From positions 8,871,611 to 8,935,610 of the forward strand of contig NC_057751.1 of assembly GCF_004010195.1 (NCBI RefSeq): DNA of 64,000 nucleotides, read 5' to 3'. The notes beneath the pieces were generated by a model. That model saw nothing but the letters and a program-made list of their open reading frames with translations. It made no database searches and was not told the origin of the DNA. The stretch is from Chiloscyllium plagiosum. Its lineage: Eukaryota. This document shows, piece by piece, positions 1,080-61,900 of the stretch. A program made the position numbers and the translations under genes. The first letter of the stretch is position 1. Each line of letters begins with the position of its first letter.

Positions 1080-1220
1080 GGGATGTGGAGGTGCCTGTGC
1101 TGGACTGGGGTGGTCACAAGTTAAAAATCACACAACACCAGGTTCTCGTCCATCAGGTTTATTTGGAAGCTTCCAACTAAACCTGTTGGACTATAACCTG
1201 GTACTGTGTGATTTCTAACT
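1080..1220. mobile_element. Fold-back mini-element, family C (putative PLE-derived)
   Basis: Imperfect inverted repeat 1119-1220 centred on GGAAGCTTCC, unpaired tail 1080-1118, 12-bp TSD CTGCATGAAATC at 1068-1079 and 1219-1230. Confidence 0.8.
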
Positions 1221-1611
1221 GCATGAAATCAAGCATTCCAACATGGGCAGCAATCATTTTACAACTGGCTTCTGAAATCGTTCTGACAAGGTATCTAACT
1301 GGCATTCCATCCCATTGAGTTCGTTGCTGGCTGTCCATCCGGTAAGGCTTATAGTTAAAACTTTTCACCTTTCCTCATCTACAGGTCCATGATCTCTGTG
1401 AGCTCCTCTGAACTTATCGCCTTCTGCAATGTTTGCACTCTCATGCTGAACTCTTACACATCCCTAATTTTAATGACTCTCGCACCAGCTGCCGTGTTTT
1501 CAGTTGCCTAAGCCAAAACTCTGTCATGTCTTCCCGAAACCCCCTTTCCCGCAGACAAACTCTCCACAATACCGACCTCTTCAATCGAGCTTTTGTCATT
1601 TGAACAAATGA

Positions 1612-2080
1612 CAATGTCTGGATCAGTGGTGCTGGAAGAGCACAGCAATTCAGGCAGCATCCGACGAGCAGCAAAATCGACGTTTCGGGCAAAAGCCCTT
1701 CATCAGGAATAAAGGCAGAGAGCCTGAAGTATGGAGAGATAAGCTAGCGGAGGGTGAGGGTGGGGAGAAAGTAGCATAGAGTACAATAGGTTGAAGTAAT
1801 CTGGAGTCTGTACTGTTTGTCCTGTTCGGTCCGAACTCTGCTGGTTTAAAGGTGGTCCGGAGTCCGAGTGGGATGAGTTGGTTACGGAGGTATGCGCTGA
1901 GGAAGCAAATGTGGCTGTGATAGCGGGTTTGTTCACGACATGGTTGAAGAGCTTCAGGGCAGAGGAGATGACCTGGGAGTTGCAGTGGGAGAGGGACTTT
2001 GAGATTTTTGTAGAGAGAGGAGGAAAACTTCTTCAAGGCAGGCATCCTTGCAAGAGGATTCGCAGTAGGGTTAAAATTCA
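1612..2080 (-). mobile_element. Internally deleted Penelope-like element (5' ORF remnant fused to 3' end with hammerhead core)
   Basis: Remnant HSHICFLSAYLRNQLIPLGLR resembles PLE N-termini. The 3' end matches the family-A hairpin arms and contains CTGATGAAGGGCTTTTGCCCGAAACGTC (1706-1679). Confidence 0.7.
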
Positions 2081-2204
2081 AGGCAGATGTCTGCTGAGCT
2101 GATGCACAATTTTGGTTGACCACGCTCCATTACGACCTGACGTTGCTCGAAAAGTGTATTATACATGCAAGTTATTGTCTATGTTTAATGAGCTTTGAGT
2201 GTTT

Positions 2205-4560: not shown

Positions 4561-4877
4561 GGGGCAGCACAGTGGCTCAGTGGTTAGCACTGCTGCCTTT
4601 CAGGGCCAGAGGCCTGGGTTCAATTCTGTGTGGAGTTTGCCTATTCTCTCCGTCTGCGTGGATTCCTCCCAAGATCCAATGATGTGCAGGTTAAGTGGAC
4701 TGGCCATGCGAAATTGCCTGTAGTATCAACAGATGGACAGGCTAGGTGGATTAGCCGTGGTAAATGCAGGGTTTATGGGAACTGGATGGGTCTGGACAGG
4801 ATTCCACTTCAGAGGACCGGTGTGGACTCAATGGGTCGAATAACCTGCTTCCTTACTGTAGGGATTCTGCAATTCTC
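4561..4877 (+). mobile_element. HE1-like V-SINE
   Basis: tRNA-like head with A box TGGCTCAGTGG and B box GGTTCAATTC, V-domain GTGTGGAGTTTGC, CR1-like 3' end. Confidence 0.85.
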
Positions 4878-6539: not shown

Positions 6540-6754
6540 GGAGAAAGTGAGGACTACAGCTGCTGGAGATCAGAGTTGAGAGTGTGATGCTGGAAAAGCA
6601 CAGCAGGTCAGGCAGCATCTGAGGAGCAGGAGAGTCGACATTTCGGGCCGCAGAATGCACCATTCCCCCTGATGAACAGTTTATGCCCGAAACTTTGATT
6701 CTCCTGCTCCTCGGATGCTGCCTGACCTGCTGTGCTTCTCCAGCACCACACTCT
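6540..6754. mobile_element. Fold-back mini-element, family A (PLE 3'-end derived)
   Basis: Inverted arms, 36-nt tail 6540-6575, 16-bp TSD CAAGGCATCAGCAACA at 6524-6539 and 6755-6770, degenerate CTGATGA...CCCGAAAC. Confidence 0.85.
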
Positions 6755-7541: not shown

Positions 7542-7757
7542 GTTTAGGTCATAGTGGTGCTGGAAAAGCACAGCAGGTCAGCCAGCATCCGAGGAGCAGG
7601 AAAATCGACGTTTCGGGCAAAAGCCCACCATCATTTTTCCTGAGGAAGGGCTTTTGCCTGAAAAGTCGATTTTCCTGCTCCTCGGATGCTGTGCTTTTCC
7701 AGCACCACTCTCATCTAAACTCTGGTTTCCAGCATCTGCAGTCCTCACTTTTGCCTA
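7542..7757. mobile_element. Fold-back mini-element, family A
   Basis: Inverted arms, 35-nt tail 7723-7757, 14-bp TSD GAAATTTCAAATGA at 7528-7541 and 7758-7771. Confidence 0.85.
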
Positions 7758-8084
7758 GAAATTTCAAATGATACAGGACAGAAAGTTGGCAATGGGAGAA
7801 CTGATTAACAAAGACTGTTGTTTAACTTCATCATGCAAAGAGGTACAAATAGTTCCTTGTCTTCATCTGTCAATGAAAGTTCCCACCAATGTTTTCACAG
7901 AAAGACTTGGTTGGCAGGGCAAAGCGAGTGTACTCCAACAACAAAATGGGATTGAAATAGTAGATTCAAGATGCTGATGATGCCTTTGACGAGATCTGGT
8001 ACATCCAGTGGCCAAAGGGGCTGGCTGAAACAACTGGGACCTCTACATTCAGAATACCACGAAATTAAGGAGCTTAATGACTCC

Positions 8085-8885
8085 TGTCGAAGTGATGTCA
8101 TTCTTCATCTGTAAGGATACTAGTGATAGTGGGTCATGTCTTTTGGTGCTCACGTATCTTGGGTCTGAAAATGAGGTGAATTGTTTGTTTGGGTTTGTTG
8201 CTGAGAAATTGGAGGACTGTGTTCTCAGCAACAAACCCAAACAAGCAGACAAAACACATCCAGAAACCCTAGCCACCCTTCCCTACATCAATACATCTCA
8301 GAAATGATTGCCAAACTACTCAGACCTCTTGGTATCATGGTAGCTCACAAACCCACGAACACACTAATACAGCAGCTCACGAACGTGAAAGATCCTATAC
8401 AGATAACAAGCAAAACTAAGCTAACATCATTTCCAAAATACCATACAAAAGCTGTAACAATCAGTTGGACAAACAGGCAGAAAACTAGCCATCAAGATAA
8501 AAGAACATCAACTAGCCACAAAAAGACATGACCCACTTTCACTACTATCCTTACATACAGATGAGGAAGGACACCACTTCGACTGGGGCGACATCCGAGG
8601 ACAAGCCAAACAGAGACACGCACAAAAATTCTGAGAAGTATGGCATTCCAACTGGAACTCTAACAACCAACACATTGACTTGGACCCCATTGACCAATCT
8701 CTGAGAAAAAGGACAGGAAATGATGTCACCACGGGAAATGATGTCACCGACCCAAGGGAACCTCAACATAAAAATAGAAAGCAGGTCACTAAGACCAGTG
8801 CTTCACTGGAGGCTCACTCCAGCTCAGCGAGCAAACTTACATCCAGAACCTCAACCTGAGCTATAAATCTTCTCAAAACTCACTA
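8085..8885 (+). mobile_element. Penelope-like element 3' fragment (family B) with inverted 5' pieces
   Basis: Decayed GIY-YIG-type region (GGACAAACAGGCAGAAAACTAGCC = GQTGRKLA). About 8087-8147 is an inverted copy of about 8517-8584. The end CAGCTCAGCGAGCAAAC...CTTCTCAAAACT matches the 46569 hairpin. Confidence 0.75.
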
Positions 8886-11800
8886 AGTTCACATCACATT
8901 CAGCAAATCTCGGTCATTTTTTGCGAATGTCAATAAATATGAATTCAGTTTAAAACAAACAACAGCATCTTTCTGACATGAAACTTGTCATTATGCGTTC
9001 GTGCATATCGTTTACCTGAGTTTTACTGGATTATGTCAATACTTAAATTGGGATTCACTCCTCTGACCACTCAGTGGGTGAGCAGACCTGGAATGTGCGG
9101 CGTCCATTCAAAAGTGACAGCAGTTCTTTAGAACAATACCCTTAACCTTTGTACTTGCTAACTTCTATCTACTCCTAGTTCAGGTGCAACTCAATTTTAA
9201 AACTTCTTTCCTTATTTTTAAATCCCTCATAGTCTCATCTCTGGAATCACCTCTTTGTCACCTTTTGATCATTCTTGGTTTTAGTCACCGTTGCTCTGGC
9301 CCTAACCTCCCAAAGACTCTCTGCCTCTCTACCCTTCATTCATGTTCTTTTTATGTGGGGTGGTATCAGATTGTGTTTGAAAGTTGCAAAGTTTTTACAT
9401 ATTTGAATAAAGACAGAAATAGACACACACACGCACTTTGATGTGTCCATGTGGAGTGATGCTAAAGTCATATGAGTTTCCCTGTGCAAAGGAAGGGGAA
9501 TAGCAATGAGAGTGGAAAATCAATGATCATTTCATGATCCAACTACTTCTGCAAAAGTGAGTGAATATTAAAAGGAAACTGAACACTGATTCTTAGGGAC
9601 AGATTGTTCACCAAAGATCAGTTTGGTCGACACTCATGTCGGAACAGTAGACATGATACATATGTGTCTATGAACCGAAGAGGACAAAGCAGAAGAGAAA
9701 AATACAAAGCATAAGTTTCCAAGACAGTTGAAGAACAACGGTTTGGAGATCATCTTTCTTAGAACAGGAAAGCATGATAAATCACAAAACACAAGACTTC
9801 AGATTCTGTTCAGCAAAATATTGTTTTGTCTCTCAAGTTGACTTGCATTTCCTGTTTTCCCTCTCTCATAGCCTTCATTGGTGCAACCTACACAGGTGAA
9901 GACCGAGGAAAAAATTGAAAGAGGAGGTTAGCATCAGCCAACTCACCCTTAAAAAGACACATCGTTGTTTCTGCTTTAACAAACGAATTTCCTCAACAAG
10001 ATCCCATAAACCTTGCCAATAAAAATGGCACATCAACCAGCCCTTCACCTGAGCAGTGTTCTTCTGGGACAGCAAGGTTGCTGGATATGTTGCCAGACTC
10101 AAAACAAGTCTTTTTCACTTCAATTACATATTTCACCGTATGTACAGCAGAGACCTAATCAACAGAACTCCGTTCCAAACCAATCTCCTCTCACTCTTTA
10201 TGCGTCCACATTAATATATTCTGTTCCTTTCTCCATCATGTATTCAGCTGACTTGTCCTTAAATGCACCTTTACACATTCATTTCACTCTGGGTTTTTTT
10301 TTCTCTCGAAGTACATAGTGAATGTATTTGGGACTCCCTTCTATTTAAAACTCTGAGTGCTGGTCTTGATTGCAAATGGAAATATCTTCATAGAAGCATG
10401 TCAAACCTACTCATAACCCTGCTTCTTCTGTTTTATGAAGCAAAGAACCCAAGCCTAAACTGGATTTCCTTATGGATATCACTTCTTATATATGATTCAT
10501 TGTTTGCCTGTAGTCTAATCTGACTTCTGATGAGTTGGTAACTGTAGTATGATTCAGAACAGAGTTTCAACTCACAGTTTCCATCATTGCAAGTTAGTGA
10601 AAGCCCTGATCAGCTAAAATTCCTATCCTTCCTCCCAAACAAAAACTTCCGTGTATCCACTTAATCTGAATCACCTATAAGCCACCCAATACCTCCCTAC
10701 CGTACAGTGAAATAGCCTGTCAATAGTCAATGTCTTGACTCACACGTGAAGAACAGCCACGTACTGGAAGATGCTGTTCGAACTGCACTCGAGCAAGAAT
10801 CCATACCTTCAGAAAAGGAGAGAAGACATTTGAAGGTAATTACATTACACACATTTATATAAAGTCAGACAATAAATATTTTCTTTGAAGCATGTTGCAT
10901 GGTCACACCTGATGTATAAGTAAAATGAACCTCTTTACCTTATGCCAAACCCATTTACAGAAAATCCCTCCAGATAGGCATCACTAATCCATACTTATGT
11001 TATGGATGCTTTGGAATATTGCCTGCATGCTGAATTAGCATAAAAGGATAAAACCGTTCACTGTTCAACAGGTTTACAGCAGGACAAGGAGGCTTATCAA
11101 ATGTCAGCCTCTGTTGATGGGCTAATTTGAATTTAGCTGTTGAACGAAGGAAAAGAAAGAGAAAAAAAACTGATGGATTGGAAGAGTCAGGATAGATATT
11201 GGTATGAAATTGAACAAGAAAGTCATCATCTGCAGCATTCCTCTGCTCTGTTCTGGATCTAGGTCTATCCTTTGTGCATTAGTCCATGTGTTTGGGAAGA
11301 TGGACACATTGTGGTAATCCAGAGACACAGGTTAATGTACTGAGAAGATGAGTTCAAATTCCACCATGTAGAACTCAAATTCAAGAAATAAATCAGGAAG
11401 TGAAAGTTTGTTTCAGTACTGACAAGGTGATCATCGATTGCCATTAAAGCCTTTCTGGAAGGAAATCTGCCCTTCACACTTGAACTGAATGATTCTAAAT
11501 CACATGATTCTAAAACCACCAAAATATGATTTGTTCTTAACTAACCTCAGAATGGTCTATCAAACCACACAGTTCAAGTGTCAATCGGATATGTAACAAA
11601 TGCTAGCCTTTCATTCATTTATCCAAATCTCTTCAAAGAATACATAAATAAAAAGCCCATCTGCAACACAACAAGACTCGGAAGTCAGCCTGCAGTCCAA
11701 ATCAAGCAAATCATGTGCAATGTTGTGCCCCTTTCATGGAGAATCATTGCCACAAGGCAGCAGGGTGAACTGCTGGACCATGAATAGGTTAACATTAACA

Positions 11801-12148: not shown

Positions 12149-12154
12149 TTTATT
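12149..12154 (-). terminator. Candidate TMEM230 polyadenylation signal AATAAA
   Basis: TTTATT on the plus strand about 545 nt past the stop codon. Cleavage site not verifiable from sequence. Confidence 0.45.
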
Positions 12155-15670: not shown

Positions 15671-18040
15671 AAGCAAAGTCAGGAACAGCATAAAAGTAAA
15701 AGTTTACAATATGGAGAAGATGAGTGGGAAGCCAGAGGATTGGGAAGTTTAAAAAACCAGCGGAGTATAACAATAAAAGCAATAAGTGGGGAGATGATGA
15801 AATATGAAGGTAAGCTAGCTCATAATATAGAAGAACATACCGATTTTTTAGATGTCTCAAAAGCTAAGACTTGACACTGAAGCAATGGAAAATGAGGCTG
15901 GAGAAATAGGAATGGGATACAAGGAAATGACACAGGAACTCAATAGGACCTTGGTTGCAGTTATCACGTTGGAAGACACCAGTAGCAGACCAGAACGTCA
16001 AAAATGTCAGGAGGCAGAAAGAAGTGCAGTGGCCATGACTAAGGAGAAGGTGCTGGGGAGGCTGAAAAGTCTGAAGGTGAATAAATAACCAGCAGATGGA
16101 CAATACTCAAGAAGACAGCTGAGGAAATTGTAGAGGCATTGGTGGTGATCTTTCAGGAATCACTAAAGACAGGGAGGGTCCCAGAGAACAATCAAATGGC
16201 TAATGTAACACCCCTATTTAACAAGTGATGGAAACAAAAGACAGGAAATTATAGGACATTTCATTTGAACTCGGGTGAGTTTGCAGAGTGCATGGATATG
16301 CTGAGCTTCGTCCAGCGGAGGTTAGACCTGACACATTTGTTAGAATGCTTTGAGGTGGTAATGAGCAATTTACACAAAAGAGAGCTGGTAGATGTGATCT
16401 GTTTGGATTTGCAGAAGGCCTTTGACAAGTGGTGCTCAGAAGGCTGCTAAATAAGCTGAGAGCACATGGCAAAGTACTGGCATGGACAAAGGATTGGCTG
16501 ACTGGCAGAAGGCAAAGTGAGGATAAAACATTTTTCAGGATGGTAGGTGGTGACAAGTGAATTTCCATAGGGGTCAATGTTTTGACCACATCTGTTCACG
16601 TTATACATTAATAATCTGGACAAAGGAATTGAGAGCATTGTTGCGAGGTTTGCAGATGATATAAAGATAGCTGAAATGACACATTGTACTGAGAAAGTGG
16701 AGAGGCTGCAGAAGTATTCAGCTTGGTTAACATAGTGGGCACGAACGTGGTACTTGGAATACAGTGTAGGAAACTATGAGGTTACGTACTTTGGTCAGAT
16801 GAAGAGAGGCATAGACTATTTTCTAAATGGGAAAGACTTCGGAAATCTGAAGCACAAAGGGACTTGGGATTCAGGATTCTCTTAAGATTAACATGCAGAT
16901 TAAATTGACAATTACGATGTTAGCATTCATTGCTAGAGTGCAAGAATACAAGAGCAGAGATGTACTACTGAGGCTGTATCTGGTTGTTTTCAGACTGCAT
17001 TTGCAACATTGAGAGCTATTATGGGCCCCATATCGATGGAAGGATGTACTGGAGTTGAGCAGACCCAGAAGAGGTTTACAACAATGATCCCAGGGATGAA
17101 GTGCTTGTCATATGAAGAGCAGTCGAGGACTCCACGTGCTTACTCGATGGAATTTAGAAAGATGGGGATGGGAAACTCATTGAAACTTACAGGACACGGA
17201 CAGGTCTTGATGGAATGGCTGAGCAAACACTGCGACCTGAAGACACAGTCTCAGAATGAAGGGGCAACTCTTTACAACTGTGGAAGAATTTGACCAAAAT
17301 TGACATAAAACTGTGTAGAGGCCATCTTGTCACAAAGCAATTTTTGTAGTAAGATTTTAGCCTGCTAGTCATAGTACTGTCTGAGCCCTGGCTGAGGAAT
17401 TCTGTTTTGATAGCCTGATCTTGCAGTGACAGGCTGCCTCTGCTCCTCAGTGCCATTAGACAGCGCTATTTCAAAGAATGATGTTTTATTTCTCTCTATC
17501 CCTTATCGGTTGTCCCAGCCGAGCTGAACCTACAGTATAAGATCATATTCAGTTTTGTAGACATTTAGAAATGTAGGTTCGGACAATGTATGGGAACCTT
17601 ACGACTAGCCCAGGTTACGTTACTAATGGGCAGTGGGCTTGTATTTTACGATGTCACTTGTAACATTGTGTATTTCATTGAAATACATCGGACTTTGTTC
17701 TGAACGAAGATATATTCCCTATAGCCATGATAAAGCTAGTTAATTGCTCAAGGTATTGTCTCCTGACTATATTGTTTTAACCGATTCAGCCAAGATTTAT
17801 TTTTCCCAACAACAACTGAGATGAGAAGGAATTTCCTCAGCCAGAATGTGGTGAGTCTATGTAACTCATTGCCAAAGAAGGCTGTGGAAGCCAAGTCACT
17901 GAGTGTATTTAAGACATTTCTAGACAGATTCTTGATTGGTCAGGGGATCAAGGGTTGTGGTGAGGAGGCAGGACAATGAGGGTGAGAAACTTGATGGGCT
18001 GAATGGCCCAATTCTGCTCCTATTTTTTATGGTTCTAATG
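15670..18040 (+). mobile_element. CR1 ORF2 fragment split by a solo LTR
   Basis: RT remnants (VDVICLDLQKAFDK, FADD). The 3' end resumes at 17812. Confidence 0.85.
17279..17811. mobile_element. Solo LTR (533 bp)
   Basis: TG...CA termini (TGTGGAA...TTCCCAACA) and 5-bp TSD ACAAC at 17274-17278 and 17812-17816. Removing it restores the CR1 sequence TTTACAACTGAGATG. Confidence 0.75.
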
Positions 18041-22490: not shown

Positions 22491-22872
22491 GTATAAATTC
22501 AAATAATTCAGTTTAAGGGAGAGCAACTTCAGTCTCAAAACCAGTCTCCTCAATTTAAAAAAGAGCAATTACAGAAGTACAAAAAGAGTTATCTGAAGTG
22601 AGGTAAGAAAATAGACGAAGGGCTGAGACTAACTGTCAGTACAGGAACAGTGACAGACATTCATATAGACATTTCACGTTGCTCAGCAAAAAATTATTCT
22701 GGTCAAAAAGAAGACTTTGAAGAGAAGGATGAATCACCTGTGGATAACAAAAATAGAGAGTTTTTGATTAAAATTGCGGCACACACAGCAGCGAAAACTT
22801 ATGTTCTTTGGGACCAATACCAGATGACTGAAAGCTAAAAAAAGAGAAAATTGCTTCAGAAAGTAAATTTAG

Positions 22873-24520
22873 TTGAAGACAAAAAAACTGCAGATGCTGG
22901 AATGCAATGTAGACAAGCAGAAGGCTGGAAGAACACAGCAGAGCCAGGCAGCATCAGGAGGTTGAGAAGTCAACGTCTCAGGTGTAACCCGTATTCAGGA
23001 GTAGGGATGGGTGTAAGGGGAGTTGCAGATAAAGGTGGGGAGGGGGTGGGGGTGGGGGAGGGTTATGGATGGGAGAAGGTTGGAGTGGTGGGGCAGTGAT
23101 AGGTGAACACAGGTGGAGGGTACGACCTGATTGGTCAATGGGAGAAATGAGTCCAGTTGGTAGCTGGAAGGAAGGGTCGCTTAGAGGAATGGAAGCGGGG
23201 AGAGGAACTGAAAAGGGAGTTGGGGGATGGGAAGGGAGGTTATTTGGAATTGGAGAACTCAAGGGACTGCATGGTGGCTCAGTAGTTAGCATTGCTGCCT
23301 CACAGCGTCAGGGACCTGAGTTCAATTCCCGTCTCCACACTGTCTGTGTGGAGTTCACACACTCTCTCTGTGTCTGTGTAGGTTTCCTCCAGGTGCTCTG
23401 GTTTTCTCCCACAGTCCAAAGATATGCAGGTTAGGTGAATTGCCCAAAGTGTTAGGTGCATTGGTCAGAGGGAAATGGGTTTGGGTTCGTTACTCTTCGG
23501 AAGGTTGGTGTGGACTTATTGAGCTGAATGGCCTGTTTCCACATGTAGATAATCTAATCTAATGACATCAATGTTGAGACCTCCGGCTGAAGGCTGCCCA
23601 GCCAGAAGATGAGGTGTTGTTCCTGCATTTGCAGTCTGAATTGCTGTGGCAATGGAGGAGATGGAGGATGGTCAAGACCCCACACCAAGAACATCTTCCC
23701 CTCAACCCCTCTCTGCCTTCACCAATCCTTGGTTTGTGCCAGTCTCCCCACCAAACCACCCTCCCCAACACCCCCCGAGTCCCTCCCGATACCTTCCCCG
23801 CAACCATAAAAGATGCAAACCCAGCACACCACACCCGTCATCTCCATCCTCAAACAGGGCCTCAAACAGTCCTTCCAAATGAGACAGAGGTTCACCTGTC
23901 TGTCCTCTAACTTAGTTTACTGTATCTGGTGTTCCTGATGTGGTCTTCTCTACATCGGTGAGACCAAAAGTAAACTCAGGGCACGCTTTGCCGAACACCT
24001 CAGCCAGGCCCGTGGGGCCAACCTGACGCCCAGTCACCTCCCATTTTAAATCCCTGTCCCACTCCCTTTCCAACATGACCATCCTTGGTCTCCATTGCAA
24101 CAACAAATCAAACTGCAAATTGGAGGAACAACACCTCATTTTCCAGCTGGGACAGCCTGGAGGACTCAACATTGAGTTTCTCAAATTTCAAATAACTTCA
24201 CTTCCCATCCCCGACTCCCTTTCCAACCGCTCCCCCTCCCTTCCATTCCTCTAACTGACCCTTCCTTCCAGCTACCAAACGGATTCATTTCTCCCATTGA
24301 CCAACCAGGTCGTACCCTCTACCTGTGTTTACCTATCACTGCCCCACCCACTCCGCCCCTCTCCCCATCCATAACCCTCCCCACACCCTCCTCCCCTTTA
24401 TCTGCAGCTCCCCTTACACCCATCCCCCAGTCACGAAGACGTGTTACACCCAAAACATTGACATCTCCACCTCCTGATGCTGCCTGGCTTGCTGTGTTCT
24501 TCCAGCCTCCTGCTTTTTTA
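22873..24520 (+). mobile_element. Penelope-like element (Neptune-type GIY-YIG C-terminus) with long inverted terminal copy
   Basis: About 23890-24000 encodes FTCLSSNLVYCIWCS*CGLLYIGETKSKLRARFAEHL. The segment 22915-23675 (excluding the nested SINE) is an inverted copy of about 24075-24515. Degenerate TSD GAAAGTAAATT at 22859-22869 and 24522-24532. Confidence 0.85.
23263..23567 (+). mobile_element. HE1-like V-SINE nested in the PLE
   Basis: A/B boxes, V-domain, (AATCT)n tail; interrupts the inverted arm. Confidence 0.85.
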
Positions 24521-24639
24521 GGAAAGTAAATTAGCAAGAAGCATAAAAAATAGATTGTAGCTTACAAGGTGTGGACTTGTTGGGCCGAAGGGCCTGTTTC
24601 CACACTGTAAGTAAAGTAATCATAAATGCAAGACTTTAA

Positions 24640-24908
24640 GGGGTGGCACAGTGACTCAGTGGTTAGCACTGCTGCCTCACAGCACCAGGGTCCCAGGTTC
24701 AATTCCAGCCTTTGGTGACTGTCTGTGTGGAGTTTGCACATTGTCCCTGTTTCTGCGTGGGTTGCCTCCCACAGATGTGCAGGTCAGGTGAATTGGCAAC
24801 GCTAATAGGTACATTAGTCAGAGGGAAATGGGAGTCGGTGGGTTACTCTTCGGAGGGTCAGTGTGGACTTGATGGGCCGAAGGGCCTGTTTCCAGACTGC
24901 AGGGAATT
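24640..24908 (+). mobile_element. HE1-like V-SINE
   Basis: GGGTGGCACAGTGACTCAGTGGTTAGCACTGCTGCC head, B box, V-domain. Confidence 0.85.
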
Positions 24909-29700: not shown

Positions 29701-31232
29701 ACCAGTGAGCCTGACACTAGTGGTGGGCAAGGTGTTGGAGGGAATCCTGAGGTGAAAAATATATTGCTGGAAAAGCGCAGCAGGTCAGGCAGCATCCAAG
29801 GAGCAGGAGAATCGACATTTCGGGCATAAGCCCTTCTTCAGGACCTGCCTGACCTGCTGCGCTTTTCCAGCAACACATTTTTCAGCTCTGATCTCCAGCA
29901 TCTGCAGTCCTCACTTTCTCCTAGGGAATCCTGAGGGACAGGATGTCCATGTATTTCAAACGGCAAGGACTGATTAGAATTATTGACATGGCTTTGTGTG
30001 AGGGAAATCATGTCTCACAAACTTGATTGAGTTTTTTGAAAAAGTAACAAAGAGGATTGATGAGGGCAGAGCGGCAGACGTGATCTATATGGACTTCAGT
30101 AAGGCGTCGACAAGGTTCCCCATGGGAGACTGATTCGAAAGGTTAGATCTCATGGAATACAGGGAGAACTAGCCATTTGGATACAGAACTGGCTCAAAGG
30201 TAGAAGACAGAGGGTGGTGGTGGAGGATTGTTTTTCAGGCTGGAGACTTGTGACCAATGGAGTGCCACAAGGATCAGTGCTGGGTACACTACTTTTCATC
30301 ATTTATATAAATGATTTCGATGTGAGCATAAGAGGTACAGTTAGTAAGTTTGCAGATGAAGGTCACCTAAGATTACAATAGGATCTTGATCAGATGGGCC
30401 AACGGGCTGAGAAGTGGCAGATGAAGTTTAATTCTGATAAATGCGAGGTACTGCATTTTGGGAAAGCAAATCTTAGCAGGACTTATACACTTAATGGTAG
30501 GGAGTCCTCGGGAGTGTGGCTGAACAAAGAGACCTTGGAGTGCAGGTTCATAGTTCCTTGAAAGTGGAGTTGCAGGTAAATAGGATATTGAAGAAGGCTT
30601 TTGGTATGCTTTCCTTTATTGGTTAAAGTATTGAGTATAGGCGTTCAGAGGTCATGTTGCAGCTGTACAGGACATTGGTTAGGCCACTGTTGGAATATTG
30701 CATGCAATTCTGGTCTCCTTCCTATCGGAAGGACGTTGTGAAATTTGAAAGGGTTCAGAAAAGATTGACAAGGATGTTGCCATAGTTGGAGGATTTGAGC
30801 TATAGGGAGAGGCTGAACAGTCTCGGGCTGTTTTCCCTGGAGCATTGAAGGCTGATGGGTGATCTCATAGAGGTTTATAAAATCATGAGGGGCATGGATA
30901 GGATAAATAGACAGTCTTTTCCCTGGGGTGGGGAGTCCAGAACTAGACGGCATAGGTTAGGGTGTGAGGGAAAAGATATAAAAGGGACATAAGGGGCAAC
31001 TTTTTCACAAAGAGGGTTGTGCATGTGTGGAATGGGCTGCTAGAGGAAGTGGTGGAGACTGGCACAATTGCAACAATAAAAAGGCATCTGGAAGGGTATA
31101 TGAATAGGAAGGGTTTCGAGGTATATCAGCCAAGTCTGGCAAGTGGGAGTAGATTAGGCTGGGATACCTGGTCGGCATGGATGAGTTGGACCGAAGGGTC
31201 TATTTCCGTGCTTACATCTCTATGACTCTACG
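26790..31232 (+). mobile_element. Near full-length decayed CR1 LINE
   Basis: ORF1 zinc-finger remnant (VTCSSWQMWE...YICNKC) and esterase-like remnant. APE endonuclease motifs (YFNARS, YYRPP, VGDINFP, SDHN). RT motifs (PGNYRPVSLT, GVPQGSVLG, FADE). CTCTATGACTCT tail. Many frameshifts and stops. Confidence 0.9.
29753..29922. mobile_element. Fold-back mini-element, family A, inside CR1
   Basis: 14-bp TSD AGGGAATCCTGAGG at 29739-29752 and 29923-29936, 38-nt tail. Confidence 0.88.
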
Positions 31233-32961: not shown

Positions 32962-33295
32962 AGATTCCACAGTGTGGAAGCATACCCTTTGGCCCACCAA
33001 GTCCACACCGACCCTCCAAAATGTATCCCATCCACTCCCCCCGACCATATCCATGTAACCCTAAATTACCCATGGGTAATCCACCTGACTTATACATCCC
33101 TGGACACTATGGGCAACTTAGCAGGGGCCAATCCATTTAACCTGCACATGTTTGGATTGTGGGAGGAAACCAGAGCACCTGGAGGAAAACCATGTTGACA
33201 CAGAGAGAACGTTCAAACTCCACATTGACAGTCAGTCAAGGATGGAATCAAACCCAGGTCCCTCGTGCTGGGGACTGAGCCACCATGCCACCCCA
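32962..33295 (-). mobile_element. HE1-like V-SINE
   Basis: Reverse-complement V-domain (CAAACTCCACA) and head. Confidence 0.8.
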
Positions 33296-45922: not shown

Positions 45923-46106
45923 GAGATAAAGTGAGGACTGCAGATGCTGGAGATCAGAGCTGAAAATGTGTTGCTGGAAAAGCGCAGCAGGTCAGGCAGC
46001 ATCCAAGGAACAGGAGAATCGACGTTTCGGGCATAAGCCCTTCTTCAGGAATTCTCCTGTTCCTTGGATGCTGCCTGACCTGCTGCGCTTTTCCAGCAAC
46101 ACATTT
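45923..46106. mobile_element. Fold-back mini-element, family A, with intact hammerhead core on the minus strand
   Basis: 16-bp TSD TCAGACTGTATTTATA at 45907-45922 and 46107-46122, 37-nt tail, core at 46048-46021. Confidence 0.9.
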
Positions 46107-46568
46107 TCAGACTGTATTTATAATATTGTGAGCATTTTTGGGACCTGTCTCTGTGGAAGGATATGCTGGCCCTGAAGGGAGTCCAGAGGAGGTTCACAAA
46201 AATAATCCCAAAATTGTAGAGGAGCTTGTTGTATGAGGAAGGTTAAAGACAGGATCTGTACTCAATGAGTTCAGAAGCATGGGTGGGAATGAGGTGGGAT
46301 GGGCGGGGGTGGCGGAGCTCATTGGAATTTACAAAATACTGAGAGGACTGGACAGCGTGGACGTGGAGAAGATGTTTCCACTAATGGGAGAGACTAAGAT
46401 CCGAGGGCACAGCCTCACAGTGAAGGGATAGAACTGAGATGAGGAGGAACTTCTTCAGACAGAGGGTGGCAAACCCGTGGAATTCATTGCTGCAATTGGC
46501 TGTGGGAGACCAAGTCATTGAGAGTATGTAAGATAGAGATGGATTGGTTCTTGATGAGTGAGGGAATG

Positions 46569-46692
46569 GAGTTTTGAGAAGATTTGTAGCTCAGGTTGAG
46601 GTTCTGGATGCAGGCTTGCTCGCTGAGCTGGAAGGTTCGTTTTCAAACGTTTGAAAACGAAACTTCCAGCTCAGCGAGCAAGCCTGCATTCA
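46569..46692. mobile_element. Fold-back mini-element, family B
   Basis: Near-perfect palindrome 46605-46692 centred on AAACGTTT, 36-nt tail, degenerate 11-bp TSD (AGTGAGGGAAT / AGTACGGGAAT). Its sequence is the 3' end of the PLE at 8085-8885. Confidence 0.8.
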
Positions 46693-47455
46693 GTACGGGA
46701 ATCGAAAGTTACTGGGAGAAGGCAGGATGGGGTTGAGAAACATATCAGCCACGGTCGAAGGACGAGCAGACTTGATGGGCTGAGTGGCCTGATTCTGCTC
46801 CGACATCTTAGGGTGTTACGGCGACATTTCAAAATAGGTCATCCTTTTGAGTTCTTTTTTTTTCTCAATTATTAGCCTGAGATCTTGTGAAGGATTAGGA
46901 ACTATATGGCATGACATAGGCACAGTCTGAGTAATTTCTTCTCTCAGAGGGCAGTGAATCTGCGTAATTCTTCACTATAGTGGGCTGGAGAGGCTGCGTT
47001 ATTCAGTACAGTGAAGACAACATTTTCGACAAATTTTGAACCAGTCAGGGAACCAAGAGTGAAAATGTGAAAATCAATGGAGAAAAAGCAAGGGGAGTTG
47101 GGGGTTATCGGTTCAACTATAATCTCAGTAACTCGATGGGTTGGATGGCCTACTTCTAGTCCCCCACCTTATTGACTGCAGGGGAGAGAGTCACTGAACA
47201 AATTAGTAACACATACAGTGGTGATTTTATGAAGCTCTGGTTCACACAAACATTGGTCATGGCCACGAAAAATAAATAAAGCGGAGATAAACTACTAGTG
47301 GCTATTCGAGATACAGTTGAACTCTGATTATTCACAACAACGAACATGTCGGGGTGACAACACTGCAACCTGTTCTCTGTCTGGTCAATTGCAAGTGTAT
47401 TAAGAAAAGCGAAAAGCAAAAGGTTTCTTGTTGCTGATGTTTTGCTTTTGTGCAG

Positions 47456-48549: not shown

Positions 48550-48765
48550 TGAGAGTGTAGTGCTGGAAAAGCACAACAGGTCAGGCAGCATCCGAGGAAC
48601 AGGAAAATCGATGTTTCGGGCCAAAGCCCTTCAGCCCTGATGAAGGGCTCCGGCCCGGAACGTCGATTTTCCTGCTCCTCGGATGTTGCCTGATTTGCTG
48701 TGCTTTTCCAGCAACACACTGTCAACCCTGATCTCCAGCATCTGCAGAACTCACTGTCTCCCATG
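48550..48765. mobile_element. Fold-back mini-element, family A
   Basis: Inverted arms; plus-strand core CTGATGAAGGGCTCCGGCCCGGAACGTC at 48637-48664; partial TSD ATAAGTGT. Confidence 0.85.
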
Positions 48766-48832
48766 ACAAATAAGTGTGGTGACCTGGCTAATATGCTGAG
48801 GTGAACTGTAAATTACCAATATGCTAACGGGA

Positions 48833-49362
48833 GTTATAAAATCATGGGGGGCATGGATAGGATAAATAGACAAAGTCTTTTCCCTGGGGTGAGGGAGTCC
48901 AGAACGAGAGCCGAAAATGTGTTGCTGGAAAAGCGCAGCAGGTCAGGCAGCATCCAAGGAGCAGGAGAATCGATGTTTCGGGCATGAGCCAATGTGTTGC
49001 TTTTCCAGCAACACATTTTCGGCTCTGATCTCCAGCATCTGCAGTCCTCACCTTTTTCCAGAACGAGAGGGCATAGGTTTAGGCTGAGAGGGGAAAGATA
49101 TAAAAGAGACCTAAGAGGCAACTTCTTCACACAGAGAGTGGTATGTGTATGGAATGAGCTGCCAGAGGAAGTGGTGGAGGCTAGTACAATTGCAACATTT
49201 AAAAGGCATCTGGATGGGTAAAGAATAGGAAGGGTTTGGAGGGATATGGGCCGGGTGCTGGCAAGTGGGACTAGATTGGGTTTGGATATCTGGTTGGCAT
49301 GGACAAGTTGGACTGAAGGGTCTGTAGCCGTGCTGTACATCTCTATTACTCTATGACTCTAT
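48833..49362 (+). mobile_element. CR1 3' end containing a family-A hairpin (48911-49056)
   Basis: 13-bp TSD TCCAGAACGAGAG at 48898-48910 and 49057-49069; CR1 tail CTCTATGACTCTAT. Confidence 0.88.
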
Positions 49363-52059: not shown

Positions 52060-53955
52060 TGAGGCTTTGACCAGAAAAAGGAGGTATGGCTCAGGTACAG
52101 GCAGCTGGAATCAAGGGAATCCCTGGAAGTATATAGGGGGATACTGAAGAAGGAAATCAGGAGGTCAAGAAGGGGGCATGAGATAGCTTTGGCTGAGAAG
52201 ATTAGGGTGAATCCGAAGAGGTTCTTTAAGTATATTAAAGGAAAAAGAATAACTAGAGAGAGAATTGGACCCCTCAGGGACCAAAAAAGTGTAAAACTGC
52301 AAAAGATGGGTGAAGCCCTCAATGAATATTTCTCCTCTGTGCAGTGCAGAAAGACATGAAGATTTGGGAACTTGGAGAAGTTAGTGGTGATATCTTGGGG
52401 ACTGTCCATATCACAGTAGAGGTGTTGTTGGAAGTATTATAATGTATGAAGGTGGATAAATCCACTGGTCCTAACCAGATATATTCAAGAACACCGCAAC
52501 AGGATGGAAAAGAGATTGCCGGGGCCCTGGCTCATATTTTTGCATCATCATTAGCCATGGGTGAAGTCCTGGAAGACTGGAAGGTAGTGAAAGTAGTGCC
52601 CTTATTCAAGAAGGGCTGCAAAGACAAACCTGGGAAGTATAGACTAGTAAGCTTAACATCAGTGGTAGGTAAGTTACTTGAGAAGATTCTGAGATAAGAT
52701 ACACATGCATTTGGAAAGACAGGATTTGATTAGGAATAGTCAGCATGGCTTTGTGTATGGGGGATCATGCCTTACAAATTTGTTAAGAGTTCTTTGATGA
52801 AATGAACAGGAAGGTTGACGAGGGCAGGGCATAGTCTATCTGGATTTCCGTTAGGCCTTTGATTAAGTTCGATGTGGTAGGCTGCTCTGGAAGGTTATCC
52901 AGGGGGAGCTGGCAAATTGGATACACAATTGGTTTGATGGTAGGAAGCAAAGGGTAATAGTGGAAGGATGCTTGCTGGAATGGAGGTCTGTGACTAGTGG
53001 AGTGCCTCAGGGGTCGGAACTGGGCCCATTGCTGTTTGTTATCGAAATCAATGATTTGGATGAAAATGTTCAAGGCATGATTCATCAGTTTGCAGATGAC
53101 AATAAAATAGGAGGTATCGTGGATAATGAAGAAGGTTATCAGAAATTGCAGCAGGACTTTGATCAGCTGGGGAAGTGGGCTGAGAAATGGCAAATGGAGT
53201 TTAATACAGCTAAGTGTGAGGTCTTGCAATTTGGAAAGTTGGAGTTACATGGTGAAGGGCCTTTAGGAGTGTAGTGGAATAGAGGGACCTTGGAGTTCAG
53301 GTACGCAGTTGTCTGAAAGTGGAATCAGAGGGCTTTTGGCACACTGGTTTCATCAGTCAGGGCATTGAGTCTAGAAGTTGGAAAGTTATGTTGCAGTTAT
53401 ACAGGACATTGGTGAGTATTGGAGTACTTGGAGTATTGTGTTTCATTTTGGTCATCTTCCTATTGGAAGGATGTTGTTAAACTGAAAAGAGTGCAAAAGA
53501 AATTTATAAGGAGGTTGCCAGAACTCAAGGGTCTGAGTTGTAGGGACAGGCTGGACAAGTCAGGACTTTGCTCTTTGGAGCGTAAGAGACTGAAAGTGTA
53601 TAAGGTAATGAGAGGCATGGATAAGATGAATGCACTCAGTCTTTTCCCCAGCATTGGGGAATCAAGGATGTGACGGCTTCAGTTTAAGATTAAAGGAGAA
53701 AGAATAAAGGGGAACCTGAGGGACAACTTTTTTTTACAGAGGGTGGTATGCATATGGAATGAGCTGCCAGTGGAAGTGGTTGAGGTGTGTTCATTAACAA
53801 CATTTAAAAGGCACTTGGACAAATACAGGGACAGAAAAGGTTCAGAAGAATATGGGCCAAGTGCAGTGAAATGAGGTTAGTGTTGATGGACATTATGGTC
53901 AGCATGGAACAGCCTGGGCCAAAGGGCCTGTCTCTGTGTTGTAGGACTCTATGAT
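52060..53955 (+). mobile_element. CR1 ORF2 3' half
   Basis: KPGKYRLVSLTSVVGKLLE, GVPQGSELGP, FADDNKIGG, CR1 tail. Confidence 0.9.
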
Positions 53956-57394: not shown

Positions 57395-58515
57395 TCATCG
57401 TTGTCTACATGGATTTTAGTAAAGCTTTGACATGGTTCTGTATGGTAGACTAATTCGTAAAGTTAGATCACATGGGATTCAGGGAGAGCTTGATGGTAGG
57501 AGACAGAAGATGGTGGTTGAGGGTATTTTTTTTGGACTGGCCTGTGACCAGTGGTATTCCACAGTGGGCGGAGCTGAGTCCACTTTTGTTTGTCATTTAC
57601 ATAATCCATTTGATAAAGAATTTCGGAAGCAAGTAAGTTTGTCAATGACACCAAATTGGTAGTATAATAGACAGTGAGAAAGGTTATCTGAGGGATCTTG
57701 ATCATTAGGGGCAATGGGCTGAGGAGTAGCAGGTGAAGTTTAATTTGGATAAATATGTGCGATAGCATTTTGATAAAACAAACAAGGCCAGGACTTGGAC
57801 AATTTCTGGTAGGGCCCTGGGTAGTGTTGTTGAACAGAGAGACCTATGGGTTCAGGTACACAGTTCTTTGAAAGTTGCATCACAGGTAGACGGGGTGATT
57901 AAAAAGGCATTTAGCACGCTTGCCTTCATTGAATAGACCATGGAGTATATTAACTGGAATGTCAAGAGGCTGTGCTGTATGTTGATGAGGCCATTTTTGA
58001 AATACAGTTCTAGTTGCCCTTCGATGGAAAGGGCATCATTAAATTGGAGAGGATCCAGAAAAGATTTACCAGGATATTGCTGGGACTGGTGAGTTTGAGT
58101 TGTAGGATAGGTTGGATAGGCTGAGACTTTTTACTGGAATGTAGGAAGTTGAGGGGTGACCTTGCAGAGGCTTGTAAAATCATGAGGGACATAGATAAGG
58201 TGAATAGCAAATGTCTTTTCCTCAAGGTGCGGGAATTCAAAACTAGAAAGCATGTTTTTGAAGTGAGAGGAGAAAGATCTGAAAGGGACCTGGGGGTAAT
58301 TTTTTCACACTCAGAGTGGTTCATATAGAGAATGAACTGCCAGAGGAAGTGGTAGATGCAGGTACAGTTACAACATGTAAAAGACATTTGGATAAGTACA
58401 TGAATCATAAAGGTTTAGACGGGCATGGTCCAAACACAGACAAGTTGGACTATTTAGTTGATAAGGATGAGTTGGACCAAAGAGTCTGCTTTTGTGCTGC
58501 ATGACTCAATGACTG
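57395..58515 (+). mobile_element. CR1 RT/3' end
   Basis: YMDFSKAFD-type motif and CR1 3' end. Confidence 0.85.
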
Positions 58516-58654
58516 TTTGTCTCCCTTTTCAAATCTTCTGTAATGTTCCAGATGTGTGTCCATTTGGTTTGTTACCCTTCTGTCTTCTACAGAAGAAAAA
58601 CTGAGCCTTTTCAGCCTGTGTATGAAAGTAAGTAACCACAGGCTGAATCATTTT

Positions 58655-58978
58655 GTTGGGACATGGGACAACACATCCACCTTAGGACAACCCAAACAGA
58701 GAGACGCATGAGAATTCCTAGAAGTATGGCATTCCAACCAGAACTCTATCAACAAACACATCGAGTTAGGCCCCATCTACCACCCCGTGAGAAAAAGAAC
58801 AGGAAATGACATCACCACAGTAAATGACATCACCACAGGAAATACCATTACCAACCCAAAGAAACCCAAACATATAAATAGAAAGTAGGAATCATGTACA
58901 CAAGATGTTACCTAGTAGGATAACAAAATGTCTCGAAATGAACTTCCCAACTTCCCAGTGAGCAAACCTACATCCAGA
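58655..58978 (+). mobile_element. PLE family-B 3' fragment
   Basis: Matches 8580-8860 (GCATTCCAACC...AAATGACATCACCAC repeats). Confidence 0.75.
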
Positions 58979-61900
58979 GTGCAGAATATTCTCAAAGGGG
59001 AGTGGGACCAGCAGGAGGTTGTTGTACACATTGGAAATAACTACACAGGAAGGAAAAAGGCCAAGATTCTGAAGGGAGAACATAGGAAGTTAGGCACAAA
59101 TTGAAAAAGGAGGTCCTTGACGGGAGCAATACCTGGATTGCTCCAAGTGAGGGTAGGTTTATGAGGATAGAGCAAATGAATGAGTGGCTGAGGAGCTAGT
59201 GCAGGGGAGGAGGGTTCACATATTTGGATCATTGGAATCTCTTCTGGGGTAGACGTCACCTGTATAAGAAGGACAGATTGCACCTGAATTAGAAAGATAC
59301 ACTTGCAGGGAGATTTGCTCAAGCTGCTTGGGAGTATTTAAACTAGTGAGGTTGGGGGGAGGGGCGCCAGGGAAATAGTGAGGAAATTGATGAGTCTGAG
59401 ACTGATATAGTTGGGAAATGGAACAAATCAGTCAGGGAAGGCAGGAACAAAGCAGACAAATGAGGTCAGACTGATAAGTTAAACTGCATTTATTTCAAAT
59501 GCAAGAGGCCTAACAGGGAAGGCAGATGAACTCAGGGTATGGTTAGGAACATGGGATCAAGATATCTTAGCAGTTACAGAGACATGGCTCAGGGACGGAC
59601 AGGACGGGCAGCTTAATGTTTCAGAATACAAATGCTGTTGGAAGGTCAGAGAGGGGGGCAGGAGAGGAGGGGGTGTGGTGTTTTTGATAAGGAATAACAT
59701 TACCACAGTACTTCAGGAGGATATTCCTGGGAATACATCCGGGGAAGTTATTTGTATGAAACTGAGAAATAAGAAAGGGATGATTACTTTATTGGGATTG
59801 TACTATAGACCCCTCGATAGTCAGCAGGAAATTGAGAAACAAATTTGTAAGGAGATCTCAGTTATTTGTAAGAATAATAGGGTGGTTATGGTAGGGGATT
59901 TTAACTTTCCAAACATAGACTGGGACTGCCATAGTGTTAAGGGTTTAGATGGAGAGGAATTTGTTAAGAGTGTACAAGAAATTTTTCTGTTTCAGTATGC
60001 GGATGTACCTACGAGAGGAGGTGCAAAACTTGACCTACTCTTGGGAAATAAGGCAGGGCAGGTGACTGAGGTGTCAGTGGGCGAGCACGTTAGGACCAGC
60101 GACCATAATTCTAAAATAGTAATGGAAAAAGATAGACAGGATCTTAAGTTCTAAATTGGAGGAAGGCCACTTTTGACGGTATTAGGTAAGAACTTTCAAC
60201 GGTTGATTAGGGGCAGATGTTTGCAGGTAAAGGGAAGGCTGGAAAATGGGAAGTCTTCATAAATGAAATAGTGAGAGTCCACAAACAAGGATGTTCCTGT
60301 TAGGGTGAAAGGCAAGGCTGGTAAGTGCAGAGAATGCTGGATGATGAGAGAAATTGAGATCTTGGCCAAGAAAAAGATATTTCAGGTATGGACAGGAGGG
60401 ATTGAGTGAAGAGTATAAAGGCAGGAGGAATATACTTAAGAGGGCAATCAGGAGGGCAAAAAGGGGACATGAGATAGCTTTGGCAAATAGGGTTAAGGAG
60501 AATCCAAAAGGGATTTTATAAATACATTAAAGGACAAAAGGCTAACTAGGGAGAAAATAGGACCCTTCAAAGATCAGCAAGGCAGCCGATATGTGGATCC
60601 ACAGGAGATGGGGGAGACACTAAACTGCATCAATGTTTACTATGGAGAAGGAAATGGAAAATGCAGGAGGTGGGGAAATAGATATTGAAAAATGTCCATA
60701 TTACAGGGGAGGAGGTGCATAAAGGACGGATAAATCCCCAGGACCTGATCAGGTGTACCCGAGAACTCTATGGGAAGCGAGGGAAGTGATTGCTGGGCCT
60801 CTTGCTGAGATATTTGTATCATCGATAGTCACAGGTAAGGTGCCAGAAGACTGAAGGTTGGCTAACATGGTACCACTGTTTAAGAAGGGTAGTAAGGACA
60901 AGCCAGGGAATTATAGGCCAGTGAGACTGACGTCAGTAGTGAGCAAGTTGTTGGAAGGAATCCTGAGGGACAGGATGTGCATGTATTTGGAAAGGCAAGG
61001 ACTGATTAGGGATCGTCAACATGGCTTTGTGCATGGGAAATCAGGTCTCACAAACTTGATTGAGTTTTTTGAAAAAGTAACAAAGGAGGATTGATGAGGG
61101 CTGAGTAGTGGACGTGATCAATATGGACTTCAATAAGACGTTCAACAAGATTCCTCATGGTAGACTGGTGAGCAAGGTTAGATCGCATGGAATACAGGGA
61201 GAACTAACCATTTGGATACACAAGTGGCTCAAAATGTAGGAGAAAGTGAGGACTGCAGATGCTGGAGATCAGAGCTGAAAATGGGTTGCTGGAAAAGCGC
61301 AGCAGGTCAGGCAGCATCCAAGGAGCAAGAGAATCGATGTTTTGGGCATGAGCCTGAAGAAGGACTCATGCCCGAAATGTCGATTCTCCTGCTCATTGGA
61401 TGCTGCCTGACCTGCTGCGCTTTTCCAGCAACACATTTTCAGCTCAAAATGTAGAAGACAGAGGATTGCTTTTCAGACTGGAGGCCTGTGACCAGTGGTG
61501 TGCCTCAAGGATCAGTGCACTGCTTTTTGTCATTGATATAAACAATTTGGGTGTGAACATAGGAGGTACAGTTAGTAAGTTTGCAGATGACACCAAAATT
61601 GGAGGTGTAGTGAACAACGAAGAAGGTTACCTCAGAGTACAATGGGATCTTGACCAGATGGGCCAATGGGCCAAGGAGTGGCAGATGGAGTTTAATTTAG
61701 ATAAATGTGAGGTACTGCATTTTAGAAAGGCATATCAGGGCAAGACTTACCATCAAGTGTATAAGGTCCTTGGGCAAGTTGCTAAACAAAGACACCTTGG
61801 AGTGTCGGTTCATTAGAGTGGAGTCTCAGATAGATAGGACAGTGAAGAAGGCATTTAGCATGCCTTCCTTTATTGGTTAGAGCATTGATTATTGGAGTTG

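Follow-up and report, generated by a model that had tools for sequence, protein, structure and literature searches.

The stretch of Chiloscyllium plagiosum DNA analyzed here (64,000 nucleotides, referred to as the window) raises the question of what the short inverted repeats scattered through it are and how they came about. The original prediction had described at least nine fold-back insertions with, where measured, an unpaired tail on one arm, most of them flanked by exact 12-16 bp target-site duplications (TSDs). All nine were found; each copy is real, their lengths range from 130 to 215 bp, and seven of the nine have such exact TSDs (Table 1). In these seven copies, the one-sided tail measures 34-41 nt from the maximal TSD to the end of the short arm. 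As shown below, these stubs belong to a known kind of jumping gene, the Penelope-like retrotransposons (PLEs).

Table 1. Hairpin stubs and related insertions in the window (pLTR, pseudo-LTR; hammerheads are predicted).
Feature	Position	Strand	Details
Family C hairpin stub	1080..1218	-	tail arm left; arms 1119-1169/1170-1220; exact 12-bp TSD 1068-1079/1219-1230
Family A (older subfamily) tail-less insertion	1621..2086	-	ORF N-terminal piece joined to hammerhead-bearing pLTR end; TSD exact over a 7-bp core
Family A hairpin stub	6540..6754	-	centre with 19-nt filler; exact 16-bp TSD 6524-6539/6755-6770
Family A hairpin stub	7542..7757	+	exact 14-bp TSD 7528-7541/7758-7771
Family B longer copy	8083..8886	+	GIY-YIG-region remnant and internal inverted piece; TSD unclear
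A-related lineage, inverted insertion of 1.65 kb	22870..24521	-	left, tail arm, interrupted by another repeat at ~23263-23567; right, longer tail-less arm; TSD 22859-22869/24522-24532
Broken GIY-YIG endonuclease segment in tail-less arm	23810..24049	+	PF01541, E 4.5e-6, 27.3 bits, above cut-off (translation with X at stop)
Family A hairpin stub	29753..29922	+	tail-less arm longer at centre; exact 14-bp TSD 29739-29752/29923-29936
Family A hairpin stub	45923..46106	-	perfect 60-nt stem; exact 16-bp TSD 45907-45922/46107-46122
Minimal type-I hammerhead core, tail arm of 45923 copy	46021..46052	-	sequence pattern; first base of tail arm is the pile-up A, 4 nt ahead of the core (46052)
Family B hairpin stub	46568..46696	-	fold at hammerhead stem III palindrome; TSD decayed, exact over a 6-bp core only
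Older family A hairpin stub	48550..48762	+	imperfect TSD, 8-bp exact core, 10/15 positions matching
Family A hairpin stub	48911..49056	+	tail-less arm longer; 8-nt filler; exact 13-bp TSD 48898-48910/49057-49069
Young family A hairpin stub	61240..61441	-	exact 13-bp TSD 61227-61239/61442-61454

The stubs fall into three families, A, B, and C, and comparisons among these gave similarity scores of 15-23 against shuffle maxima of 21-26, none above the shuffled controls, in agreement with the statement that they share no obvious sequence. At a distance of 111-129 nt from the tail end, all three carry a putative minimal hammerhead core, which had escaped the original prediction and was recognized by inspection from the pattern CTGAnGA, stem II, GAAA, and a short palindrome. 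Rfam did not detect the hammerhead and returned just sub-threshold miRNA-type matches; with such weak matches, the stubs are prone to misannotation as MITEs or microRNA hairpins.

Judged by sequence, all three families are hammerhead-bearing ends of PLEs with a GIY-YIG endonuclease (EN). The A-related copy at 22873 contains an EN segment scoring above the PF01541 cut-off, and a family B relative gave an E-value of 5e-4, below the curated cut-off. Family C ends lie downstream of the EN C-terminus at 12 of 12 loci, with a pairwise match (E 3e-15) to a protein containing reverse transcriptase (RT) and GIY-YIG, and Pfam matched none of three family C endonuclease pieces. A partial RT-EN stretch that adjoins an A end returned nothing from Pfam or from a PDB sequence search; all five of its scanned homologues have RVT_1 plus GIY-YIG. 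The motif CxxxxCKxC, which we take to be a zinc-finger-like RT-EN linker and a Neptune trait, precedes EN in A and C and is absent from the B stretch read. The junction at which the pLTR end continues into the ORF's beginning was present in 45 exact copies in young A, a count that concerns family A only. No intact full RT-EN ORF was seen in the long copies, which consist partly of unreadable letters, and open frames of 1,100-1,360 aa were rejected as intact ORFs because they span such letters.

Longer insertions of the window had been described as Penelope-like elements with 3' ends that match families A and B. The 1.6-kb GIY-YIG copy, thought to have the same layout, does have inverted arms and an 11-bp exact TSD, but it represents a related yet distinct lineage (86/110 positions identical to family A), and its tail arm is interrupted. 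The segment at 8085-8885 matches family B as proposed, but its inverted part starts away from the tail-less site and it has no convincing TSD. The segment at 1612-2085 is not an RT/EN 3' end; it consists of a tail-less pLTR end joined to an N-terminal piece of the ORF.

Of 66 classifiable TSD-flanked pairs, 64 combined one tail arm with one tail-less arm; when pairs were not filtered for TSDs, this applied to 106 of 139, with 13 being tail-less twice, 6 having the tail twice, and 14 unclassified. Tails were 28-42 nt long in 53 clean elements, TSDs varied between 11 and 16 bp, and neither the TSDs nor the target sites had a strong consensus. In 836 kb, we counted 72 inverted pairs, and 25 of the 37 TSD-flanked ones did not exceed 250 bp. 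A MITE or other DNA transposon was rejected, as symmetric terminal inverted repeats and a fixed short TSD were both absent. The asymmetric ends and variable TSDs thus bear out that the hairpins are not DNA-transposon MITEs, and the PLE linkage together with the tail/tail-less layout bears out that they are minimal PLE integration products.

The hairpins are head-to-head pairs of short copies of PLE ends, probably made anew at each site from both nicked strands, starting at two RNA sites about 35 nt apart, with many of the copies likely running off the cap. The GIY-YIG nuclease would make a staggered double nick, and both nicks would serve as primers for reverse transcription at these two sites, which would be fixed and internal to the RNA. 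Both starts would fall in the 5' pLTR-ORF junction, only about 95 and 130 nt away from the cap, which would keep each cDNA short. Many cDNAs likely reach the capped 5' end of the mRNA of the element itself and run off there, and the two cDNA 3' ends would be trimmed and then joined by microhomology or short filler, which would produce the variable centre. At the centre, the tail arm was longer in 33 of 86 pairs, the tail-less arm in 47, and neither in 6; as either arm may be longer, two separate cDNAs are indicated. The arms of one copy resembled each other more than those of other copies (median 0.96 vs 0.88, n=33, p=2e-6).

With respect to the outer ends, it had been proposed that the second end is primed by microhomology about 35 nt from the RNA 3' end. 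The start of the tail-less arm does lie some 35 nt upstream of the tail end and shows modest microhomology, but the RNA does not have its 3' end at the tail end, because the template continues into the ORF. Also, the tail-less site by itself starts simple TSD-flanked insertions and is therefore not only a second end. The predicted overlap of the short arm with the TSD was 2, 3, 2, 0, 4, 4, and 4 nt in the seven TSD-bearing window copies; 2-4 nt thus holds for six of them, but there was none at 29753, and just 26 of the 53 clean elements had at least 2 nt. The overlap with the target averaged 1.72 nt at the tail-less end against a null of 0.71 nt (n=53). At the tail end, a crude test of the full set of 53 gave no excess (1.02 vs 1.02), which had suggested microhomology at the tail-less end only, and this idea was discarded when removal of noisy ends gave 1.5 vs 0.92 nt (n=42). 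As the tail end is then in excess as well, the overlap is no peculiarity of the short arm, and both outer ends have 1-4 nt of overlap above chance.

The opposite, 5' ends of the arms form a pile-up on an initiator-like A, which precedes the hammerhead core by 4 nt in family A and by 8 nt in family C. Of 48 pairs of family A, 35 had the end of the longer arm at -10..+3 relative to the core, and loose ends of RNA reads coincided with the pile-up places; in family B, the pile-up was weak (6/17 at -25..-12). At these ends, a G often precedes the element: among non-templated junctions of family A, 4,426 of 7,369 had an untemplated G, as did 59 of the first 100 in family C, where 26% was expected in both (G counts cover families A and C). 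Control positions (G in 1/13, and in 29/100 with 29% expected) demonstrated that the neighbouring position is not enriched. The extra G was strongest in copies extending into the ORF (9/10), and none of the inspected G-junctions (25 of A, 20 of C) continued into an upstream pLTR. In accessible portions of work on L1 and SVA, an untemplated G is taken as cap copying (PMC4859970). The fixed A with its preceding G likely marks the capped start of the element RNA, and as the extra G is the known cap-copying signature, many stubs likely arose as copies that ran off at the 5' end of the mRNA. In this way, a probable transcription start was located from DNA alone. The pile-up at an A with excess untemplated G in PLE stubs is new here; our literature search, which left most subscription papers, Repbase, and Dfam outside its scope, returned nothing on PLE stubs with a cap mark and nothing on these families in cartilaginous fish.

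It was in principle possible that the same two-primer insertions were made on long, 3'-pLTR-primed templates, with the pile-up caused by a structural stall or an uncapped cut before the hammerhead and the G by terminal transferase activity of the RT or a repair preference. Several observations would suit this reading, which we nevertheless regard as rather unlikely. Most arms pass the site: 73% of the young-A arms that reach the pile-up base go on upstream with a templated C, so that run-off accounts for a large minority there, and arms that end further downstream may simply be truncated in the ordinary way. The arm ends around the pile-up are spread over -5..+3, and in about half of the A junctions read by eye (13 of 25), the G also belongs to the target or the partner arm, with a clean single untemplated G in just 6. 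In poly(A) single-cell reads, there was no spot where many molecules begin; of two raw-read RNA runs, one yielded 2,113 reads, which represented both strands and were for the most part read-through of stubs in the genome, and the other none. However, the G excess is restricted to a single position, which is a pyrimidine-A step in each of the two unrelated families, and its strength in the ORF-containing copies also argues against a stall. The predicted hammerhead cleavage site had no peak (1,068 at +28 vs 597 at +27 and 1,140 at +30, a rough comparison as the patterns are unequal in degeneracy), and hammerhead cleavage was rejected as the origin of the arm ends.

Fold-back of a single cDNA is a far less probable origin, in which a tail-bearing cDNA would self-prime at a palindrome, copy back, and stop 35 nt short, akin to an idea found in the accessible part of PMC3846280. 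The hairpins 1080 and 46569 fold at perfect palindromes, variants are common to both arms, and 31 of 86 centres have an overlap of 1-5 nt, which would suit such a process. Yet by this route the tail arm would always have to extend further at the centre, whereas the tail-less arm often exceeds it, by up to kilobases, and the tail-less site also begins insertions alone. Fold-back is thus largely refuted as a general route and may hold for symmetric centres.

Finally, it is hardly conceivable that the hairpins form an autonomously spreading hairpin-SINE class, as originally considered possible, or a MITE-like one, in which transcription or excision of a master hairpin would be followed by its re-insertion as a whole: exact centres do recur at other loci (21 genome-wide matches for the 45923 copy and 4 for a second tested centre), one centre type was found three times among the 48 A pairs, and hairpins are present in RNA reads as strand-switch joints, but the 21 copies had the tail on the long arm (8), the short arm (12), or both (1), differed in their outer ends, and spanned at least four subfamilies with diagnostic changes in both arms. 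The identical centres therefore had independent origins. Moreover, outer ends are generally fixed and centres variable, the reverse of what a master predicts, and neither the asymmetric ends nor the variable TSDs fit. For the two centres tested, this class is refuted, as is a SINE-like unit from a master with a fixed interior; the hairpins were likely assembled anew at each landing.

Two-start priming from both nicks, the mechanism we favour, would agree with in vitro work on an anole PLE. In target-primed reverse transcription by Anolis Poseidon PAc, as described in the accessible part of the report, both strands are cut and extended, two internal RT starts bound the tail, the first 172 nt of the ORF are required, and a dimer is predicted (PMC11167929). 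Hammerhead cleavage is dispensable there, in line with the missing peak at the cut site here. PAc needs no homology and favours AT-rich ATT sites, whereas the stubs are enriched in short overlaps and have no strong consensus, and that part of the report does not discuss inverted products or cap run-off (PMC11167929). With some 10^5 natural junctions, a single genome supports in vivo the priming of both strands at two fixed sites of the RNA.

Minus-strand strong-stop DNA of LTR elements is a short cDNA that starts near the RNA 5' end and runs to the cap. We tentatively suggest that PLEs might make a target-primed counterpart, starting at the 5'-proximal tail sites, running to the cap, and jumping to the RNA 3' end; a successful jump would regenerate the pseudo-LTR, and stubs would arise when both primers ran off and were joined. 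Unlike LTR strong-stop DNA, the stubs involve no tRNA primer and no integrase, and strand transfer is a proposal only. A hint comes from 7 of 30 ORF-junction loci, where an ORF stub of 65-207 nt is followed by a second unit starting at -2..-6, some with an extra G, as expected of mis-aimed jumps. No obvious mechanism of pseudo-LTR regeneration is known (PMC2377424), and accessible parts of two reports acknowledge the PLE transposition cycle as an open problem (PMC8557442, PMC11167929). If the proposal is true, hundreds of thousands of hairpin stubs are joined run-off events, and it is testable in the existing in vitro system.

The layout itself, an inverted copy with a one-sided tail, has been published for EN+ PLE insertions (Pen2a_Av, PMC3846280; Figure 2 legend of PMC8557442). 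As far as the accessible portions of these reports go, the head-to-head inverted pLTR, the 30-40 bp tail at one end, the TSD, the pLTR hammerhead, and the GIY-YIG partner are the same; here, in difference, the ORF-less minimal form is very abundant, tail is nearly always paired with tail-less arm, and 5' ends fall at one base with an extra G. LINE-1 twin priming, according to the available text of PMC12016303, likewise yields two opposed cDNAs from two target strands with a variable centre, but here there is no poly(A), and the same stretch is copied twice from fixed internal starts 35 nt apart; half of all loci here are inverted, compared with ~20% of L1s. Non-LTR retrozymes and dispersed minimal hammerheads, in the accessible parts of the sources, are also non-coding, hammerhead-bearing, and pLTR-derived, but retrozymes consist of units repeated in tandem, head to tail, and are believed to propagate, whereas the stubs are head-to-head and one-off (10.64898/2026.07.22.740005; PMC4209133). 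Opposite-strand minimal hammerhead pairs 100-700 bp apart have been described as probably truncated PLEs (PMC4209133, accessible part). A non-LTR retrozyme was rejected for the window, where the units stand head-to-head and form no tandem arrays. Short two-unit tandems occur outside the window.

All nine hairpins (inverted pairs of short Penelope-like element (PLE) ends) of the original prediction were found in the window, and the three end families A, B, and C proved unrelated at the DNA level, as had been claimed. Exact TSDs of 12-16 bp, ascribed to most hairpins, were present in seven, whereas hairpin 46569 had a 6-bp core and 48550 an 8-bp core only; the tail was confined to one arm as described and measured 34-41 nt (31-39 nt in the prediction). 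The 22873 copy, an inverted insertion, is a cousin of family A (86/110 identical) and contains a GIY-YIG segment above the Pfam cut-off. Next to an A end lies an RT-EN stretch for which the retrieved proteins carry RVT_1 and GIY-YIG (5/5 scanned). Family B is linked to a weaker GIY-YIG match than that of the 22873 copy, and an endonuclease C-terminus precedes C ends in 12 of 12 loci, which had been picked by that C-terminus. The GIY-YIG and RT-EN linkage bears out the predicted PLE origin. A minimal hammerhead core, overlooked in the prediction, was recognized by inspection in each of A, B, and C at 111-129 nt from the tail end; an Rfam search matched no hammerhead in these families. The hairpin observation is real and of an ordinary kind: published work already describes an inverted truncated PLE copy with a one-sided 30-40 bp tail (PMC3846280, PMC8557442) and hammerhead pairs on opposite strands (PMC4209133).

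Six blocks of the 3.56-Gb genome (864 kb, 836 kb readable, one block around the window) were sampled, and targeted loci were added. The blocks contained 72 inverted pairs, alongside 84 arms that lacked a partner; by rough extrapolation, the inverted pairs would number ~3 x 10^5 genome-wide. In size, 25 of their 37 TSD-flanked pairs were ≤250 bp, with the remainder graded up to 1.6 kb, and the identical layout was also seen with 3.7-kb arms. Identical centres (arm junctions) did recur at different loci, as the proposal of an autonomously spreading hairpin class had envisaged: that of 45923 was found 21 times genome-wide and that of 29753 four times. However, the 21 copies carried the tail on the long arm (8), the short arm (12), or both (1; L203, the sole exception, with a duplicated hammerhead region), their outer ends ranged from -30 to -38, and they represented no fewer than four subfamilies, whose diagnostic changes were found in both arms. 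Copies of the 29753 type, four in all, were split two and two, and arms were more similar within a copy than between copies. These repeated centres reflect a hot spot and not a spreading unit, so that this part of the prediction was wrong.

A tail arm was paired with a tail-less arm, which starts ~35 nt inside, in 64 of 66 classifiable TSD-flanked pairs, and in 106 of 139 pairs without the TSD filter, which 68 passed. Among 86 close pairs, 47 had the tail-less arm as the longer one at the centre and 33 the tail arm. A longer tail-less arm could not come from one cDNA snapping back on itself. TSDs of the clean set (53 of 71 TSD-bearing elements; 18 dropped for short TSDs or noisy ends) were 11-16 bp long with family modes of 14, 13, and 12. 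Here, the tail-less end overlapped the TSD by 1.72 nt versus 0.71 in a shuffled-target null, with ≥2 nt in 26/53 versus 9.1 expected. For the tail end, the overlap was 1.5 versus 0.92 (p=0.0025) once 11 noisy ends were removed, and showed no excess before this removal. An anole enzyme cuts both strands and extends them, starting at two internal positions that delimit the tail (PMC11167929); these findings fit such a two-site, two-strand extension. As the sense arm of L014 continues into the ORF (see table), RT can also start further downstream than at the two main sites.

In 35 of 48 family A pairs, the longer arm terminates between -10 and +3 relative to the hammerhead core. Simple insertions also begin in this region, and RNA reads have their loose ends at this stop site and at the tail and tail-less ends. 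Arm ends did not accumulate where the hammerhead would cut, and no RNA start was directly observed. A genome-wide count gave 27,107 young-A arms extending to the A at -4; the base that follows is the templated C in 19,738, G in 4,426, and A or T in 2,943; G thus constitutes 60% of the non-templated bases versus 26% expected. One base downstream, G occurred in 1/13 among the matches listed. In family C, 1,154 junctions at the A at -8 were non-templated and 6,068 templated; among the first 100 non-templated ones, G stood before this A in 59, against 29/100 at the neighbouring base, which is the chance expectation. In 45 copies running from -4 into the ORF, the preceding base was C (35), G (9), or other (1). 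As none of the G-junctions read continued into an upstream pseudo-LTR (pLTR; 0/25 distinct A, 0/20 C), the G is not a subfamily variant. Sorted by eye, the 25 A junctions comprised 6 with a single untemplated G, 6 with G at a filler end, and 13 with G common to target or partner. Matches to the pLTR-ORF junction were 12 forward and 33 reverse, an imbalance that may stem from withheld stretches. The family A site conforms to the initiator motif YYANWYY. The new contribution is that the G excess is restricted to one position. Untemplated G at full-length 5' ends of L1 and SVA is an accepted sign of cap copying (PMC4859970), and the transcription start of D. virilis Penelope lies inside the pLTR, at an initiator (PMC2377424).

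The mRNA likely starts just upstream of the hammerhead, with the protein likely bound to the 5' pLTR-ORF junction. Nicks staggered by 11-16 bp then likely prime two cDNAs, at one site ~95 nt and another ~130 nt from the cap. Both cDNAs likely run off or halt early and are then trimmed and joined, a joining step that we infer. Longer arms probably stem either from a priming event in the 3' pLTR or from a jump that follows run-off. Among 30 ORF-junction loci, 7 have a second unit that starts at -2 to -6 after a short ORF stub, which is compatible with mis-aimed jumps and also with internal deletion; other loci have plain microhomology deletions. The ~300-bp two-unit tandems are candidates for mis-aimed template jumps or non-autonomous derivatives. 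Our bold reading, offered as a proposal, is that the pseudo-LTR arises by a strong-stop-and-jump route.

The older, near-full-length A copies at L171-L190 have their truncation point within the ORF start and terminate at the tail or tail-less site; the inverted arm of L171 consists of the tail alone. Several hairpin stubs are nested in decayed LINE copies, so that sister copies can serve as empty sites for comparison.

Further features in the window and at targeted loci
Feature	Position	Remark
GC-rich promoter-like stretch	900-1050	with CpGs; immediately left of the 1080 stub
Short interspersed repeat	23263-23567	lies within the 22873 element, interrupting its tail arm
Further copy of this repeat	4561-4860	
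Further copy of this repeat	24638-24900	
Further copy of this repeat	31245-31546	
Further copy of this repeat	32969-33270	
Decayed LINE copy	16371-18033	AP-endonuclease/RT-like
Decayed LINE copy	27685-31230	AP-endonuclease/RT-like
Decayed LINE copy	45300-46814	AP-endonuclease/RT-like
Decayed LINE copy	52141-53954	AP-endonuclease/RT-like
Decayed LINE copy	57404-58514	AP-endonuclease/RT-like
Decayed LINE copy	58976-62439	AP-endonuclease/RT-like
Decayed family B end	58680-58980	additional to the predicted hairpins
Inverted insertion	L014:4012-5306	sense arm passes through the tail, ~290 nt into the ORF, then 13-bp TSD
Two-unit tandems	L300, L301, L304, L309, L316, L318, L322	two hammerhead units separated by a 65-207 nt ORF stub; TSDs flank those checked
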